The notes below the pieces were generated by a model. It had not been told where the DNA came from. It saw nothing but the letters and a program-made list of their open reading frames with translations, and did not search any database. Both the position numbers and the translations under genes were made by a program. Source: Candidatus Microgenomates bacterium (lineage in GTDB: Bacteria; Patescibacteriota; Microgenomatia; JACQLA01). Taken from it: a stretch of DNA of 64,000 nucleotides. Of this stretch, positions 4,594 to 16,943 are shown piece after piece (within the stretch, counting starts at the first letter, position 1; each line of letters opens with the position of its first letter). The DNA lies in NCBI GenBank assembly GCA_016204255.1, contig JACQLA010000005.1:4339-68338 (forward strand), written 5' to 3'.

Positions 4594-6741
4594 CTAGACC
4601 AATGGTCGTGTATATCTTTCCTGGGAAACTTGTAGGGCTTTGACCCGATTTTGAGTCCGACAATCAGGTAATGGGAGAGTTGTGGCTAAAAAAGGGCGGC
4701 TAATGTGCCCTTCGATCGTCAGCTTAACAATGATTTGATGATTTGCCAAGGAGGTAAAATCCGATTCTTTATAAAGTTGATCAAATTCATAGAAAAAACG
4801 GCGGGCGTCACCCGCTCCAACAGCAAAAGACATTAATGTTCCGGCATTGCCTAGAATAGCCGCCTGAACATCTTCCGAAACTTGAGCTATATACTGGTTA
4901 GCTAAAACTAGATTGAGCCGATATTTCCGGGCCTCCGAAAGAATTTTAATAAAGGAGGTAGTAGCAAAATTTTGAAACTCATCGACATAAAGGAAAAAAT
5001 CGCGTCTCTCATTTTCCGGGATACTAATCCGCGACATGGCCGCCAGTTGAAATTTAGTAATGAACATCGCTCCTAAAAGGGCCGCCGCATCCTCACCCAA
5101 GCGCCCCTGTGAAAGATTAAGAATCAGAATTTTCCCTTTATTCATAATTTCTTCAAGGTCAATAGTTGACTGCGGCCGGCCGACAATGTTACGAATAAGA
5201 GGTGAAGAAAGAAACTGTCCAACCTTATTTAAAATTGGCCCGGTAGCTTCAACCTGGAGATTAATTGGCATCCGTTCAAATTCATTTATCCAGAAATTTT
5301 TAATCACGTTATCGGGAATTTTTTCGACAATTTTCTGACGGTAGTTTTTATCGGAAAGAAACTGCGGGACCTCCAGAAAACTTGCGCCCTTTACGTCCAG
5401 TAGGGCAAAAAGACAATTTCTTAAAATATGTTCAAGCCGGGGACCCCAAGTTTGAGCATAAAGTTTATGAAAAATGGCAATAATACCTGAGACAACCAGT
5501 TCCTTTTGTGCCGGATTCTTAACTTCCAGGGGATTAAGAATAAAAGAACGGGCTTGATTTGAGGGATCAAGATAAACCACGTCATTTATTCGAAACGAAG
5601 GAATATAATCTAAAAGAATCTCCGATAAATCACCATGCGGATCAATAACTGCCAACCCTTCTCCTTTACGAAAATCCGAAATAGCCATATTGGCTAAAAA
5701 CGTAGATTTCCCCGTTCCTGTCTTACCAATACTATAGATATGGCGGCGGCGATCCTCTCGCCTTATCCCAAAAGTAGTCGGTTTATTTTTAAATTCTGTC
5801 CGGGCGAAGAAGTTTATATTTTCCTTGTCGGCGTCTTCGGCCACCGGTAAGTTTTCCGGCGGCTCAGAAGGCATGCTTTTAATCCATGAAAGATTGGAAA
5901 CTTTAAGTCCCGCCGGAGGATGCCAAAGACTGGCCACCTCGTCAAGATTAAATATATGATTTCGGGGTATAAATGCGGCTTTTCTTAAAAGAATACTTTT
6001 TAAAAGTTTACCCTTTTGCCAAAGCATGGGTTTTTTAAATGTCAAAGAATTGGCTTCGGCGGAAAAAATACCAAAAGCGCCAGTTAAAGAGGACAGTAAG
6101 GATTCTGCGCGCTCCTGATCTTTAGCGGAGGTCAAAAGTCTAATTCCGACTTGAAAACCAGCCTGACCAATTTTTTGTTCGATGAGCTTATTTGTAACCT
6201 GTGTTTGAAAGCGAACTGAGTCGGGCGTGTCTTTTACCATCGCCCGCCAACCTTTATTTTGCCAGGAAGAGGCTCCAGTTAAAACCATTTGGAAAATCAT
6301 TTTTTCGCCTGGACCGGCCTTGCTTAAAGCGGCCAAAATCGAAGACAGGGGATCAGAATCTTTAAAACTACGCCAGGTACGCAAGGGATAATAGAAGGGT
6401 GCGCTTTGAACCATTTGTCCAAAAGCCAACCGCTCCCCATTTTTAAAAGCCAAATAATCTTTTACCGGAGTAATAACTGCCAGTGGATATTGGGCAGCAA
6501 TTTGACTTTCAAAGTAGGAAGCATTTTTTTGGGGCAAGATAACAAACAAATGAATTGACTGATCAACGACCGCAATTTCTAAAAATATCGTTGGTTTTTT
6601 TAAAAAAAGCAGGCGATCCCAAAGAGAGTATCCAACTAATGATATTAGATTAGCAAAAAATGAAGAGGCTACCTCAAGTGTTTCCTCTGTATCCCGAGGA
6701 ATTTTAACCTCTAGAATCGTCCTTGATTCAGAATCTGTCAT
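4594..6741 (-). CDS. TraD/VirD4-like (type IV coupling protein / DUF87-like) P-loop ATPase
   Basis: Walker A GKTGTGKST, Walker B-like FFLYVDEFQNF, and a C-terminal TraD-like region. ATG at 6741 is preferred over the track's TTG at 6777. Confidence 0.75.
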   Translation of the reverse strand: MTDSESRTILEVKIPRDTEETLEVASSFFANLISLVGYSLWDRLLFLKKPTIFLEIAVVDQSIHLFVILPQKNASYFESQIAAQYPLAVITPVKDYLAFKNGERLAFGQMVQSAPFYYPLRTWRSFKDSDPLSSILAALSKAGPGEKMIFQMVLTGASSWQNKGWRAMVKDTPDSVRFQTQVTNKLIEQKIGQAGFQVGIRLLTSAKDQERAESLLSSLTGAFGIFSAEANSLTFKKPMLWQKGKLLKSILLRKAAFIPRNHIFNLDEVASLWHPPAGLKVSNLSWIKSMPSEPPENLPVAEDADKENINFFARTEFKNKPTTFGIRREDRRRHIYSIGKTGTGKSTFLANMAISDFRKGEGLAVIDPHGDLSEILLDYIPSFRINDVVYLDPSNQARSFILNPLEVKNPAQKELVVSGIIAIFHKLYAQTWGPRLEHILRNCLFALLDVKGASFLEVPQFLSDKNYRQKIVEKIPDNVIKNFWINEFERMPINLQVEATGPILNKVGQFLSSPLIRNIVGRPQSTIDLEEIMNKGKILILNLSQGRLGEDAAALLGAMFITKFQLAAMSRISIPENERRDFFLYVDEFQNFATTSFIKILSEARKYRLNLVLANQYIAQVSEDVQAAILGNAGTLMSFAVGAGDARRFFYEFDQLYKESDFTSLANHQIIVKLTIEGHISRPFLATTLPLPDCRTQNRVKALQVSQERYTRPLV

Positions 6742-6803
6742 GCCTAAATGATACCACAAACAATAATTTTTTCCCAAAATATTTTTAAACCTAGCCTCAA
6801 TAT

Positions 6804-6811
6804 GCTATAAT
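6804..6811 (+). promoter_or_regulatory. extended -10 promoter element for the RNase P RNA gene
   Basis: TGcTATAAT sits 7-10 nt upstream of the P1 stem. Confidence 0.5.
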
Positions 6812-6818
6812 GTACCTG

Positions 6819-7312
6819 TTTAGGAGGCAGGACGATTGCTCCGCCTTTGGCGGAGAGGAAAGTCCAGACCGCAGGAAGCAGGGTGTCCCCGATTTAATCG
6901 GGGAACGCGAAAGCGCTAGTCCTTAAACTCTTTACCCACATGTAAAGTTTAAGGCGGATCCCGAATTAACGGGATACGAGAGCAACAGAGACGAGTGGGA
7001 GTGAAACGGGCAATCCTCCCCGCGGCAACCTCCGATCGACCCGCTTTCCCCGATTTATCGGGGGATTAAGGACGCTTCCCCGAGGGTCAAAGTTTGAGGG
7101 CACCATAAAAAATCCCGACGGTTATCGGGAAATAAAGTGGTCCCCCGATTTTATCGGGGGGAGATAGATGATCGTCACTCTGAGTCCGCCAGCTGGCGGG
7201 TCGAAGAGGAACAGAATCTGGCTTTAGATAGGTATTACCCCGCCTTTGGCGGGGGAACTATCGCAAGACAGTTCTGTTGAAAACAGAATCTGGCTTACTC
7301 GCCTCCTAAACA
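6819..7312 (+). ncRNA. rnpB: RNase P RNA, bacterial type-A-like, unusually long (about 490 nt)
   Basis: P1 is taggaggc (6821-6828) paired with gcctccta (7301-7308). P2 is gacgat (6831-6836) paired with atcgtc (7171-7176). CR-I is GAGGAAAGTCCAGAC (6855-6869). AGCAACAGAGA is at 6981-6991 and CR-V ACAGAATCTGGCTTA at 7283-7297. The ends are approximate. Confidence 0.85.
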
Positions 7313-7325
7313 ATTCATTCTTTCG

Positions 7326-8309
7326 TCATTCTTTTCGGTTCTGAAAAATATCAAGAAGAATAATTTTGGCCATTACAAAAAAGGGGACTGCTAAAAGAGC
7401 CCCTAGTGTCCCCATTAATTTTGCCCCAATCATTAAGGCCAAAATTGTCACCAACGGATCAATCCCCACCGCTTTTTGCATTAATTTTGGAACAATTAGA
7501 TTATTTTCTAATTGCTGTATTACAAAATATAAAGCGGCGGTAGCCAAAGCCAGAAGGGGTGAGATAGTTAGAGCAACAATCACCGCCGGAATTGCGCCGA
7601 TAATAGGACCTATTAAGGGTACGATTTCCAAAAATCCAGCGAATATTGCCAAAGGTAAAGCATAGGGAATGCGTAGCAAAGACAAACCAATATAAGCTAA
7701 GAGGCCGATGATAATCATCAGTAAAACTTCACCCCTCAACCAGCTTCCCAAACCCTTTTCAATTCGATTTAAAAGTTGTGTAAATCTTTCTTCCTGCCCG
7801 AAATTAGAACTTAAAATCTTGGCTAGGTTACGCCAGCGCAAAAGAAGATAAAAAGTGAAGACAAAAACCGTAAAAATAGTTATGATGTTACCAAAAAATC
7901 CTATTGTATAGCGAAAAACATCTCCCCCGAAAAAGATCGTCCTTGAGTCAAATGATTTTAAAATTTCTTGCGTGGGAAGCTGATAGAAAAAAAGCCGATT
8001 GACGGAATCAAATAGAATCGGCAGGCTCTCGCCCAGTTTTTTAGTCTGATCGATCAAGGGAGGCACAAGAAGCCCTATCCCCCCGCCCAAAATAATAAAA
8101 ATTAAAAAATAAATAAGAAGAATTGAAATGGGTCGAGGCACCCTCTTCTGGGCTAGCCACTCAACCGGCGACTGTAGAGCTGAAACCAAAATTAAAGAAA
8201 CGAATAACAGGAGAATTATTTCCCGAATCTGGATAAGCAACCAAATTGAAATGATCAGGGCGAAGGTAAAAAGAATGGTTTTATGAGAAACCTCAATTTT
8301 GCGCGGCAC
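7326..8309 (-). CDS. AI-2E family (PerM/UPF0118) transporter
   Basis: 327 aa polytopic membrane protein with the typical C-terminal block FLEIVPLIGPIIGAIPAV. Apparent GTG start. Confidence 0.8.
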   Translation of the reverse strand: MPRKIEVSHKTILFTFALIISIWLLIQIREIILLLFVSLILVSALQSPVEWLAQKRVPRPISILLIYFLIFIILGGGIGLLVPPLIDQTKKLGESLPILFDSVNRLFFYQLPTQEILKSFDSRTIFFGGDVFRYTIGFFGNIITIFTVFVFTFYLLLRWRNLAKILSSNFGQEERFTQLLNRIEKGLGSWLRGEVLLMIIIGLLAYIGLSLLRIPYALPLAIFAGFLEIVPLIGPIIGAIPAVIVALTISPLLALATAALYFVIQQLENNLIVPKLMQKAVGIDPLVTILALMIGAKLMGTLGALLAVPFFVMAKIILLDIFQNRKE

Positions 8310-9282
8310 AAAAGGATTCTATCATGATTTCTATTTTTTTGTCAAAATCGGGCTGAGTAATATCAAACCATTTAATCTGTTTGTTTTTTTTAAACCATGT
8401 CATTTGCCGGCGAGCATAACTATGCTCATCATATTTCCAGCGACTAATGGTCTCGCTGAGGTTTTGTCTTCCCTCAAAATAAGGTCGCCATTCAAAATAG
8501 CCGTGTCCAGACATTGATACAAGATTCCAAGAATAACCCTTACCGATTAATTTTCTAACTTCTTCTTCAGCACCCATTTTAATTCTCTCCTCGACCCGCT
8601 CATCAATAAACTGATAAAGAATTTTAAATGGTGCTTTTAAACCGATCATTAAGACCTCGAAATTAGTTTCCTGACTTTTCTCTTTGACTTGTGGTTTTCT
8701 CATTTTTTCCGCTATCTCGATTGCCCGAATCAATCTCCGGGGATTTTTCCGATCCGATTCATTCATTGCCTGCCATCTTGTGGTCCAGGCTTTAGATAAA
8801 ATTTCCCCCAATTCATCGATTCCTAGCTCACTTAATTTTTTCCGTAACTTCCAATCCGGAGGTATACCTAAGCTCTTTATGTCTTCCAGTAATGCTTTTA
8901 TATAAAATCCCGTTCCCCCCAATAGGAATGGCAGTCTCCCCCGACACCAAATATCTCTAATAACTTTCCAGGAAAGATCATAATAATCCGCTGCCGTAAA
9001 TGACTGATCAGGATTTACTACATCCAACAACCAAACCGGAACTTCATTAAACCGGTAGGGCTTTATTGCTTGGCTAGCGCTAATTTTAATTTTTAATTTT
9101 TCTTTTCCAATTTTGGTTTTAGCATCTTGAGGCAAATCTTTGCCAGTGCCAATATCCATTCCACAATAAATCTGGCGCGAATCGCATGAGACAATTTCCC
9201 CACAAAACTTTTGGGCCATTTGAACCCCCAACTTTGTCTTCCCCACGGCGGTCGGGCCGCAAATTACAACAATTTTTTCCAT
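8293..9282 (-). CDS. miaA: tRNA dimethylallyltransferase
   Basis: N-terminal P-loop ICGPTAVGKT, then DSRQIYCGMDIGTGK, and overall MiaA-like sequence. Confidence 0.9.
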   Translation of the reverse strand: MEKIVVICGPTAVGKTKLGVQMAQKFCGEIVSCDSRQIYCGMDIGTGKDLPQDAKTKIGKEKLKIKISASQAIKPYRFNEVPVWLLDVVNPDQSFTAADYYDLSWKVIRDIWCRGRLPFLLGGTGFYIKALLEDIKSLGIPPDWKLRKKLSELGIDELGEILSKAWTTRWQAMNESDRKNPRRLIRAIEIAEKMRKPQVKEKSQETNFEVLMIGLKAPFKILYQFIDERVEERIKMGAEEEVRKLIGKGYSWNLVSMSGHGYFEWRPYFEGRQNLSETISRWKYDEHSYARRQMTWFKKNKQIKWFDITQPDFDKKIEIMIESFCAAQN

Positions 9283-16207: not shown

Positions 16208-16278
16208 CGATGAAAACACATACAGAGAGAAACCCAAATAGACTTTGGGTTCTCTCTTTAGGGATTTTAAACAAACCT

Positions 16279-16308
16279 CTTCGGACTGAAAGTCCGAAGT
16301 TTTCTTTT
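16279..16308. terminator. intrinsic-terminator-like hairpin (better formed in + orientation)
   Basis: cttcggact-gaa-agtccgaag followed by ttttctttt on the + strand. The minus-strand reading is followed by aggtttgttt. Confidence 0.4.
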
Positions 16309-16393
16309 CAAAGTTTACATGAGTCCTGTAAAAAACTCGAGTCTTCCAGTTTTACTCCTGCTTACCGAAGAAGTATTTAATCTTTGCCTTCAT

Positions 16394-16419
16394 CTCCCCG
16401 ATTAAATCGGGGAGTTTTC
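16394..16419. other. CCCCGA-loop-TCGGGG hairpin, same motif as those inside the RNase P RNA
   Basis: ctccccg-attaaat-cggggag followed by ttttc on the + strand. It lies just downstream of hup. Confidence 0.4.
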
Positions 16420-16436
16420 GGCAAGACGATTATAAC

Positions 16437-16709
16437 TTAACGAATTGCCTTCTTTAAGGCCTTACCGGCAGTGAAACCGGGAGTTTTTCTCGCCGCGATA
16501 GTTATCACTTCACCGCTGCGAGGATTTCTTCCTTTTCGACTGGCACGGGAACGTACCATAAAAGTCCCAAACCCAGTTATTACAACCTTTTCGCTTCTTT
16601 TAAGGCTATCACGAATAGTATCTAAAAATGCTGCTACTGCTTCTCGGGAAGCTTTACTAGTAAGATCAGCTTTTTTTGCCACCGCTTCAATGAGATCCGC
16701 TTTAGTCAT
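16437..16709 (-). CDS. hup: DNA-binding protein HU
   Basis: MTKADLIEAVAKKADLTSK…GFGTF…RNPRSGE. ATG at 16709 is preceded by GGAGGGAGGTG, and the track's GTG at 16718 lies inside that SD. Confidence 0.92.
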   Translation of the reverse strand: MTKADLIEAVAKKADLTSKASREAVAAFLDTIRDSLKRSEKVVITGFGTFMVRSRASRKGRNPRSGEVITIAARKTPGFTAGKALKKAIR

Positions 16710-16943
16710 TTCTCTCACCTCCCTCCAGGCAGATAACTTCTTTCTAAAGTCGATTTTCTTTTTGAAAAATTCGACCTAGGTTAAATCCAAAAAAACGATA
16801 GCATATCTAATTTAAAATGTAAAGGTTTAATGCGCTAAAAATTGATTTTTAGGATCGACTTCAAAAGGGGTTTTTCTACACCACGCTAGAAATGAAGAAA
16901 ACGGGTCTCCTTGATAATATTCTGAGTCCGAGGCCCAAAACGA

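Follow-up and report, generated by a model that had tools for sequence, protein, structure and literature searches.

RNase P RNAs of bacterial class A (Rfam family RF00010; the E. coli M1 type) share an ordered set of conserved regions (CR) and a common helical core, in which P4 is the most conserved RNase P element across the domains of life and positions catalytic metal ions. Here we describe rnpB, probably a functional RNase P RNA gene with a class-A core and a remodelled periphery, at positions 6817-7312 of a 64-kb stretch of DNA (the window: the whole stretch of 64,000 nucleotides [nt] analysed) from an uncultured Microgenomates bacterium belonging to the candidate phyla radiation (CPR). 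Its RNA has CR-I, CR-II, CR-III and CR-V in the order and with the sequence of class A, together with the P1-P2-P3-P4 core, P5/P7, the P6 pseudoknot, P15/P16 and the segment joining P18 to P2 (J18/2). It differs from class A in scoring below the family's gathering score, in lacking P12-P14, in whose place a pseudoknot joins the loop of an extra helix (H3) to the stump at the P12 site, and in carrying a further extra helix (H4), a hairpin at the P18 position apparently without a GNRA loop, an extra hairpin between P15 and P18, and a 72-nt module that duplicates CR-V.

Lui, Nielsen and Arkin (2021; PMC8172020) described CPR RNase P RNAs that score below Rfam thresholds and have helices extended or missing, including two Microgenomatia genomes without P12; the portion of that report available to us makes no mention of a duplicated CR-V, a P12-replacing pseudoknot or hairpin reuse. 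Full-text literature searches likewise found no description of a duplicated CR-V in an RNase P RNA. Among known elements, P19 of class-B and some class-A RNAs is an optional hairpin between the 3' strands of P2 and P4, a site occupied here by 7185-7200. If the second CR-V copy forms P4, the module would be a second arm at this site, although the canonical P19 is a simple hairpin with neither a CR-V copy nor a CR-V-complementary strand. We know of no natural RNase P RNA with a second exact P4 3' strand and a competitor encoded in cis. Short repeats are found in rnpB of heterocyst-forming cyanobacteria (short tandemly repeated repetitive, or STRR, sequences in P12) and in RNA genes of Rickettsia (Rickettsia palindromic elements, RPE), and these repeats are abundant genome-wide. 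The window RNA resembles them in accommodating a repeat in the periphery of an essential structured RNA, but its hairpin is almost confined to rnpB in the 64 kb searched. Expansion segments and intervening sequences of rRNA are likewise insertions that fold on themselves, project from a conserved core and occur patchily in particular lineages; unlike them, the insert described here doubles a universally conserved core strand and has a conserved interior sequence.

An earlier reading of the window (the original prediction) had proposed an RNase P RNA with lineage-specific peripheral expansion, five near-identical hairpins and a duplicated P4 3' strand. Every sequence feature that it listed is present at the coordinates given, including a hairpin copy outside the gene at 16394-16414, and its identification of an RNase P RNA with lineage-specific peripheral expansion is supported. 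Several of its interpretations changed, as described below.

A conserved 72-nt module with a second CR-V

A 15-nt sequence (AACAGAATCTGGCTT) occurs twice and exactly in the 3' part of the gene, at 7210-7224 and 7282-7296, 72 nt apart. By an arithmetic estimate, the chance of a second exact 15-mer within 500 nt is of the order of 1e-6. CR-I (GAGGAAAGUCCAGAC) and the CR-V sequence ACAGAAUCUGGCUUA, present at 7283-7297 and again at 7211-7224, are complementary through CCAGA/UCUGG, a form of P4 common to many Microgenomates, and the gene thus holds two equivalent candidates for the P4 3' strand, as predicted. The module and the canonical CR-V that follows it are made up as follows.

7210-7224, plus strand: CR-V copy 1 (AACAGAAUCUGGCUU), conserved in the related loci L130, L133, L134 and L135/L136
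7225-7264, plus strand: module hairpin, consisting of UA, GAUAG (7227-7231) paired with CUAUC (7258-7262), an internal loop GUAUUAC/GGAA and a tip CCCCGCC-UUU-GGCGGGG (7238-7254)
7265-7278, plus strand: internal 'anti-CR-V' strand (AAGACAGUUCUGUU), complementary to either CR-V copy
7279-7281, plus strand: linker GAA, the loop of a hairpin if the anti-CR-V strand pairs with copy 2
7282-7297, plus strand: CR-V copy 2 (AACAGAAUCUGGCUUA), with the canonical continuation into the P1 3' strand

The comparison set comprised about 20 relatives, obtained from the conserved gene order MiaA/AI-2E/rnpB and from DNA-pattern scans. Contigs encoding the closest homologues of the neighbouring AI-2E transporter formed the syntenic set; all had rnpB at the same position, and positional homology of every element was taken from the alignment of these rnpB sequences. 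The closest relative, L130 (AI-2E protein 76% identical), was found by synteny and is hence unbiased; it has the same module with both CR-V copies exact (15/15). A metagenome scan for two exact CR-V copies 40-70 nt apart yielded four contigs representing three further lineages (L133, L134 and L135/L136), so that with the window genome the module is present in five lineages. Its consensus in these reads AACAGAAUCUGGCUU, UAGAUAG(G/U)UA(U/C)UAC and a variable tip hairpin in the 5' part, and GGAACUAUC(G/A)CAAGACAG(U/A/G)UCUGUU, a linker of 3-6 nt and AACAGAAUCUGGCUUA in the 3' part. The tips differ in all five lineages with pairing kept (CCCGCC/GGCGGG in the window RNA; CGCCGA/UCGGCG, CAC-GUAA-GUG, CGC-GUAA-GCG and CACC-GAAA-GGUG in the others), and the module outside the tip is nearly invariant. 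Between lineages, the module interior is 72-91% identical versus 47-59% for the rest of the RNA. Because the tips have fully diverged while the remainder of the module has not, we read the module as being under purifying selection and not as recently spread. No module sequence was found outside rnpB in any compared locus, and a scan of a viral collection with the module interior gave a single match, a chance one, inside a coding region without rnpB.

The module is absent from the next-closest group (L125-L132), whose AI-2E proteins are 62-69% identical to that of the window. Among its other carriers, the corresponding identity is 57% for L133 (over 112 amino acids only), 41% for L134 (partial) and 48% for L135. 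L135 groups among Curtissbacteria-like sequences, and the module is absent in L138 (AI-2E 71% identical to that of L135) and in other Curtissbacteria loci. A scan for the CR-I variant GAGGAAAGTCCAGAC with one genome per species served only to gauge the negative background and to supply relatives without P12. It gave 120 loci, many of them non-CPR or chance matches in coding sequence, and recovered many Microgenomates (Levy-, Curtiss-, Gottesman-, Woese- and Daviesbacteria). None of the approximately 70 of these loci with a recognisable CR-V had a second copy, and the distance from CR-I to CR-V was 199-407 nt, versus 428 in the window gene. Comparison with homologues, which the original prediction had suggested as a check on the second copy, shows that most relatives lack it but that five independent lineages keep an exact copy with its flanking module. 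This excludes both a duplication made in assembly and a singular case.

Complementarity of the inner strand (AAGACAGNUCUGUU, 7265-7278) covers the entire 15-nt repeat, in 6 base pairs (bp), a single-base bulge, 3-4 bp, one G.A mismatch and 3 bp; the pairing of ACAGAA in the first copy with TTCTGT, noticed earlier, extends in this way to about 13 bp with 7210-7224. One inner-strand position varies (U, A or G) and stays paired in each lineage. The 5' part of the strand resembles the CR-I strand of P4 (AAG-A-CAGG versus AAG-U-CCAGA). Two registers can be drawn. In register one, the inner strand pairs with copy 1, giving a near-continuous arm of CR-V/anti helix, GAUAG/CUAUC and tip (-32.6 kcal/mol, z -5.25), which would leave copy 2 for P4 and make the module an elaborate second P19. 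In register two, it pairs with copy 2 as a local hairpin (-10.1 kcal/mol), which would leave copy 1 for P4 and make the module two hairpins at the P4/P1 corner. Folds of the whole RNA with P4 forced gave -208.9 kcal/mol with copy 1 and -209.4 kcal/mol with copy 2, and because the two arrangements are isoenergetic they do not decide which copy forms P4. Hints for copy 1 are that it is transcribed first and that the linker ends (U..A in L133, U..A in L134, C..G in L135) add a base pair to the anti/copy-2 hairpin; the hint for copy 2 is that it alone continues canonically, through GGCUUA(C/U), into P1. The Rfam model selected copy 2 in the window, L133 and L135, and copy 1 in L134 and L130. Should both registers be populated, the RNA would be a natural system for the choice of a large ribozyme between alternative core pairings; should only one be used, the core would be seen to accommodate a large insert where P4 meets P1 or at the J19/4 boundary.

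How the module relates to its surroundings was also considered. Each CR-V copy is preceded by AGATAG (7162-7167 and 7226-7231) and by a CCGCC...GGCGG hairpin (7186-7199 and 7240-7252), which had led to the proposal of a tandem duplication of the 3' module. The duplication is real, but it belongs to an old, conserved module with its own complementary strand and is not a simple recent tandem copy. Beyond UAGAUAG and the CCGCC hairpin, the putative whole units (J18/2, P2 3' strand, P19 and CR-V) align unconvincingly, and in L133 J18/2 is GAGACAGAUGG yet the module begins UAGAUAG, which counts against duplication of the whole unit; we retain that origin only as a possibility. An attachment-site (att) duplication by an integrative element was rejected, with only the 15-nt CR-V doubled, the P1 3' strand single and the 57-nt interval free of open reading frames. 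A kink-turn or sarcin-ricin reading of the internal loop GUAUUAC/GGAA was dropped; its sequence is not that of a kink-turn.

Clade helices and recurrent peripheral hairpins

The remaining additions lie at the periphery and fall at the following positions, given with the elements around the P12 site.

6886-6904, plus strand: H1, at the P8 position (UCCCCGAUUUAAUCGGGGA), a species-specific replacement
6921-6954, plus strand: H3, an ancestral helix of the clade supported by covariation, with loop CCCAC (6935-6939) pairing with GUGGG (6995-6999)
6956-6977, plus strand: H4, an ancestral helix supported by covariation, with a conserved GRAnnRAC loop
6981-7016, plus strand: CR-II (AGCAACAGAGA, 6981-6991), P12 stump (GAGUGGGA, without a P12 hairpin) and CR-III-like GUGAAACGGGCAAUCC (7001-7016)
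7047-7065, plus strand: H5 (UCCCCGAUUUAUCGGGGGA), an insertion into the P16/P17 loop, on the 5' side of the P6 3' strand
7102-7141, plus strand: H6 region, with outer stem ACCAU/GUGGU, A-rich internal loops and tip UCCCGA-CGGUUA-UCGGGA (7113-7130)
7142-7160, plus strand: H7 (CCCCCGAUUUUAUCGGGGG), immediately 5' of J18/2 (P18 position)

H3 and H4 are present in all relatives, between P9 and CR-II. In a gap-free alignment of 94 columns and 19 sequences, compared with 500 shuffles, 10 of 11 stem pairs of H3 and 7 of 8 of H4 change on both sides. For the H3-loop pseudoknot the figure is 3 of 5 pairs, with 98.9% of cells paired. Taken jointly, H3, H4 and the pseudoknot have 95.8% of cells paired and 20 of 24 pairs changing on both sides, values equalled in none of the 500 shuffles. 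The extra 14-bp hairpin that had been offered as a peculiarity of the expansion is therefore H3, an ancestral helix with strong covariation. Its loop is complementary to the P12-site stump in 20 P12-less RNAs (the window RNA and 19 distinct relatives), with four kinds of matched change (CCUAC/GUAGG, CCGAC/GUCGG, CCCGC/GCGGG and ACCAC/GUGGU), and relatives that retain P12 (L129, L131, L134 and L135) have ordinary H3 loops. From this pattern of sequence change, the pseudoknot looks like a structural replacement of P12. It may also offer a structural reading of the missing P12 noted for two Microgenomatia genomes in the CPR survey (PMC8172020).

A different pattern is presented by the recurrent hairpins. 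CCCGA-N3-8-TCGGG occurs seven times in the window versus 0.43 expected, four times inside rnpB; the tighter core CCGATT..ATCGG has three copies in rnpB and one elsewhere in the 64 kb (at 16398), and all three CCGCC..GGCGG hairpins of the window are in rnpB (P3, 7186-7199 and 7240-7252). Among the hairpins at 6886-6904, 7047-7065 and 7142-7160, identity is 84% across 19 nt, which upholds the claim that one hairpin sequence was reused within the species. The count of five near-identical hairpins stands in part: three, arguably four, represent recent reuse, but the one at 6958-6975 (CCCG/CGGG) is ancestral H4 with a different conserved loop, and its likeness to the CCCGA family is superficial. 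That at 7113-7130 shares the stem only, and both resemble the other three more loosely.

Judged by alignment with relatives, H1, H5 and H7, the CCCCGAUUU(A)AUCGGGG family, are species-specific and absent at those positions in L130. Relatives, L130 included, have a GNRA-tipped hairpin CGGAGYGYAAGCUCCG at the H1 site and GYGYGAC-UUAAAAYA-UCGYAC at the H7 site. No counterpart of H5 was found in L130 or L125-L132, where about 10 nt stand in place of the 31 in the window RNA. Every relative has a hairpin of variable sequence at the H6 site (CCCCCGAUUAAAUCGGGGG in L125/L126). The CCGAUUUAAUCGG core, CCGAUU(U/A)A(A)UCGG, turns up elsewhere in other species, at P19 and H6 in L125/L126, at P19 in L132, at P3 in L134 and at the module tip in L130, and it is essentially absent from DNA flanking the rnpB of these motif-bearing relatives. 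L125 (3994-4394, minus strand) and L126 (1234-1634, minus strand), from two different metagenomes, are identical over 1635 nt except for the P3 hairpin, in which CCCCGCCUUUGGCGGGG is replaced by CACUGAAAAAUUAAUAAUUUUUUAGUG (CCCCGCCTTTGGCGGGG versus CACTGAAAAATTAATAATTTTTTAGTG). This pair directly evidences cassette-like replacement of a hairpin between strains. Peripheral hairpins in this clade thus appear to be swapped in their entirety within very short times, with a few hairpin sequences recurring, and such cassette swaps suggest that RNA genes of CPR bacteria evolve in an unusual way.

Individual relatives show further variation. L133 (575-809, minus strand) has a large insertion of its own, about 70 nt in J5/7. 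In L135 (4531-5145, minus strand), whose RNA reaches about 600 nt, P16 is preceded by two extra hairpins, P12 ends in a UCCGCCAGCUGGCGGA tip and P19 is long. Outside rnpB, the intergenic region 16226-16420, beside a small HU-like open reading frame (16437-16718, minus strand), has three strong hairpins. One, at 16394-16414 (TCTCCCCGATTAAATCGGGGAG followed by TTTT), is the one copy of the rnpB hairpin that the window has outside the gene, and another is CTTCGGACTGAAAGTCCGAAG followed by a T-run. These hairpins may be terminators or part of a small RNA; Rfam gave only a weak chance match.

Origin of the extra length

We consider it probable that the extra length of rnpB has three separate origins: clade helices, hairpin turnover and the conserved CR-V module, with the module as the main cause of the oversize and hairpin reuse as a partial one. 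The first would be the clade-wide helices H3 and H4, the H3 loop pairing with the stump that replaces P12. Under the second, the CCCCGAUUU(A)AUCGGGG family would wholesale replace or insert hairpin tips at P8, P16/17 and P18, with a second family, CCGCC-N3-4-GGCGG, at P3, P19 and the module tip. This turnover is most likely cassette-like, with template switching or short-patch recombination as its candidate mechanisms, and the positions concerned would need only a stable hairpin. The third would be a 72-nt segment, conserved across lineages, that expands the RNA at the P4 3' strand and is composed of an exact second CR-V, a small conserved hairpin and a CR-V-complementary strand. One CR-V copy would pair with CR-I to form P4 and the other would be sequestered by the inner strand in a P4-like decoy helix, thereby extruding the segment from the core as a self-contained arm. 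The pairings and the conservation of this segment are read from the compared sequences; we infer that it arose by local direct-plus-inverted duplication of CR-V and that it serves as a structural or protein-binding arm.

Several points weigh against this reading. The fine-scale patchiness of the module requires repeated loss or transfer. Repeated loss is mechanistically easy, since the 15-nt direct repeats could recombine with clean excision of the module and yield a canonical gene, and transfer between rnpB alleles is possible. For three of the four further lineages with the module, the search pattern itself called for two exact copies and so accounts in part for their exactness, and the non-tip stems are invariant, so that covariation neither proves nor disproves them. 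The reading does not account for the recurrence of one hairpin sequence across species. H1 (6886-6904) comes from one assembly, the further contig of run SRR12113384 over the 5' half being only a fragment that ends at ~6867. Finally, the argument for function is one from conservation.

Of the alternatives, a neutral or selfish scar is unlikely. The module would then be a direct-plus-inverted duplication, or a small element with a 15-nt target duplication, that is tolerated since it folds on itself, easily lost and functionless. Its patchy occurrence in two separate clades, the 15-nt flanking direct repeats, the self-contained fold and the direct/inverted/direct layout, which is typical of template-switch duplications, all fit such a scar, but an interior conserved far above the level of the remaining RNA, next to fully diverged tips, argues for purifying selection, and neither the compared loci nor the viral match, a chance one, place the module outside rnpB. 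We hold it quite unlikely that the doubled CR-V and its partner-strand mimic form a bistable or self-chaperoned core, in a clade that also has the P12-replacing pseudoknot and cassette hairpins. Here either copy could supply the active-site helix, CR-I and the inner strand would compete for identical CR-V copies, whose identity would be selectively maintained, and a conformer switch could act as a folding checkpoint, in autoregulation or in response to protein binding. The isoenergetic registers, the 15/15 identity in the window and the unbiased L130, the resemblance of the inner strand to CR-I (AAG-N-CAG), the extra anti/copy-2 base pair closed by the linker in three lineages (U-A, U-A and C-G) and the lineage-dependent choice of copy by the Rfam model are what such a core would lead one to expect. 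Either register, however, comprises one P4 and one decoy helix, so switching need not alter activity; the data suggest no ligand or condition, RNase P is a housekeeping enzyme, and the module occurs in five lineages only, most close relatives being without it.

Colonisation of rnpB by a dispersed palindromic mobile repeat, of the repetitive extragenic palindromic (REP), miniature inverted-repeat transposable element (MITE) or RPE kind, is improbable, and this part of the original prediction was not sustained. Three near-identical copies are absent from the closest relative, a further intergenic copy lies at 16394-16414, and the repeats in rnpB of heterocystous cyanobacteria provide a precedent, but three of the four copies in 64 kb sit in one 500-nt gene, the flanks of relatives with motif-bearing rnpB have none, the hairpins show neither inverted terminal repeats nor target duplications in their surroundings, and at two of three sites the hairpin replaces an older one of similar size and is not added. 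Excision of the arm by RNase III, as in an rRNA-type intervening sequence, leaving a two-piece RNA held together by P1 and P4, is very improbable. The arm forms an almost unbroken duplex of about 25 bp, insertions are a known trait of CPR rRNAs and the patchiness of the module is like that of rRNA intervening sequences; conservation of the interior sequence would be unexpected in an excised spacer. That the duplication is an artefact of assembly or a chimera is already refuted. Logan contigs of SRR12113384 (L002 and L141) do stop inside the gene, at ~7278 and ~6867, with the middle unassembled, perhaps because the hairpins vary between strains. In an independent assembly, however, contig L003 of run SRR4343430 is 100% identical over 6988-7313, duplication included, and four other lineages from different samples have the same layout.

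Core, promoter and neighbourhood of rnpB

A default Rfam scan of the whole window at the gathering threshold found only a tRNA and missed rnpB. An E-value scan of 6500-7600 (E up to 10) gave a full-length RF00010 match at 6820-7313, covering model positions 1-367 (E 8.2e-18), whose 60.7 bits fall short of the gathering score of 100 bits; syntenic relatives score 54-98 bits. Other families matching in that interval, anti-hemB antisense and hairpin ribozyme (E 1.9), were weak and dismissed as chance. Relative to the model, extra length lies in the P8 slot (67 nt), in P16/17 (20 nt), in the P18 slot (58 nt versus 24) and between the P2 and P4 3' strands (~90 nt), and the P12-P14 block is shortened from 80 to 13 nt. 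The placement check proposed earlier, run here as cmscan, treated most hairpins as insertions and gave an ambiguous answer. With scores below threshold and an inconsistent choice of CR-V copy by the models, annotation pipelines will miss or truncate the gene. The elements of the gene not listed above are as follows.

6817-7312, plus strand: rnpB, RNase P RNA gene of class-A architecture, diverged, ~496 nt
6817-6828, plus strand: P1 5' strand, a perfect 12-bp inverted repeat with 7301-7312
6831-6837 with 7170-7176, plus strand: P2 (3' strand GAUCGUC), read from the sequence and the RF00010 alignment
6840-6854, plus strand: P3 hairpin UCCGCC-UUU-GGCGGA, from the RF00010 alignment
6855-6869, plus strand: CR-I, the P4 5' strand (GAGGAAAGUCCAGAC)
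6874-6879 with 7074-7079, plus strand: P6 pseudoknot, GGAAGC with GCUUCC, by positional homology in the alignment of relatives
6906-6915, plus strand: H2, a P9-like GNRA hairpin CGC-GAAA-GCG
7162-7176, plus strand: J18/2 (AGAUAGAU) and P2 3' strand
7185-7200, plus strand: hairpin at the P19 position, UCCGCC-AGCU-GGCGGG; the homologous site is UCCGCCAACUGGCGGA in L127 and CCCCGAUUUAAUCGGGG in L125/L126
7301-7312, plus strand: P1 3' strand, inverted repeat with 6817-6828

P1, P2, P4 and P6 can all be drawn, and P1, P2 and P3 close the RNA as nested helices. P6 varies in step on its two strands, with GAAAGC/GCUUUC in L126 and with GAAGGC/GCCUUC in L127 and L132 (by eye from the alignment). The specificity-domain motifs ACAGARA and GURAAC...CAAUCC are present in CR-II (AGCAACAGAGA) and the CR-III-like GUGAAACGGGCAAUCC, and are invariant in 19 relatives. 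P12, with P13/P14, is missing from the window RNA, the hairpin adjoining J18/2 at the P18 position has a UUUUA loop, and the P15/16 internal loop has no clear GGU, the L15 motif to which the CCA end of tRNA binds; the sole tRNA gene of the window encodes CCA. Together with the promoter at P1 and the conserved gene order MiaA/AI-2E/rnpB, the drawable core supports identification as RNase P RNA. A second candidate partner for P6, GCUUUC at ~7042-7048, lies just 5' of H5 and may be a small duplication tied to the H5 insertion. Just beyond rnpB in L132 (~1841-1990) and L131 (~1955-2060), both on the minus strand, the P1 3' strand recurs (TTAYTYRCTTCCCRGACA, then a T-run) about 50 nt past the real 3' end. 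A conserved GAAAAAGGTTCCYGAACGAAGTGAGGGGTTC separates the two P1 3' strand copies, and the arrangement could be an integration-site remnant or an alternative 3' end.

Upstream of the gene is a promoter-like element.

6784-6811, plus strand: sigma-70-like promoter, TTTAAA, a 16-nt spacer and a TG-extended TATAAT (10/12 consensus matches)

With the promoter ending at 6811, transcription is predicted to start at ~6817-6818, the first base of P1; TATAAT, TAAAAT or TAGAAT boxes also lie directly upstream of P1 in relatives. The gene is flanked by a DUF8128/TraG-like gene and the AI-2E transporter gene, both on the opposite strand. The order MiaA, AI-2E transporter and opposite-strand rnpB, recorded for 7326-9282 of the window and for loci L005-L138, is conserved across many Microgenomates lineages, which makes the AI-2E gene a convenient anchor for finding RNase P RNAs missed by Rfam. 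On the minus strand, the antisense of H6 (7113-7130) followed by TTTTTT scores as an intrinsic terminator and could stop the convergent MiaA/AI-2E transcript inside rnpB.

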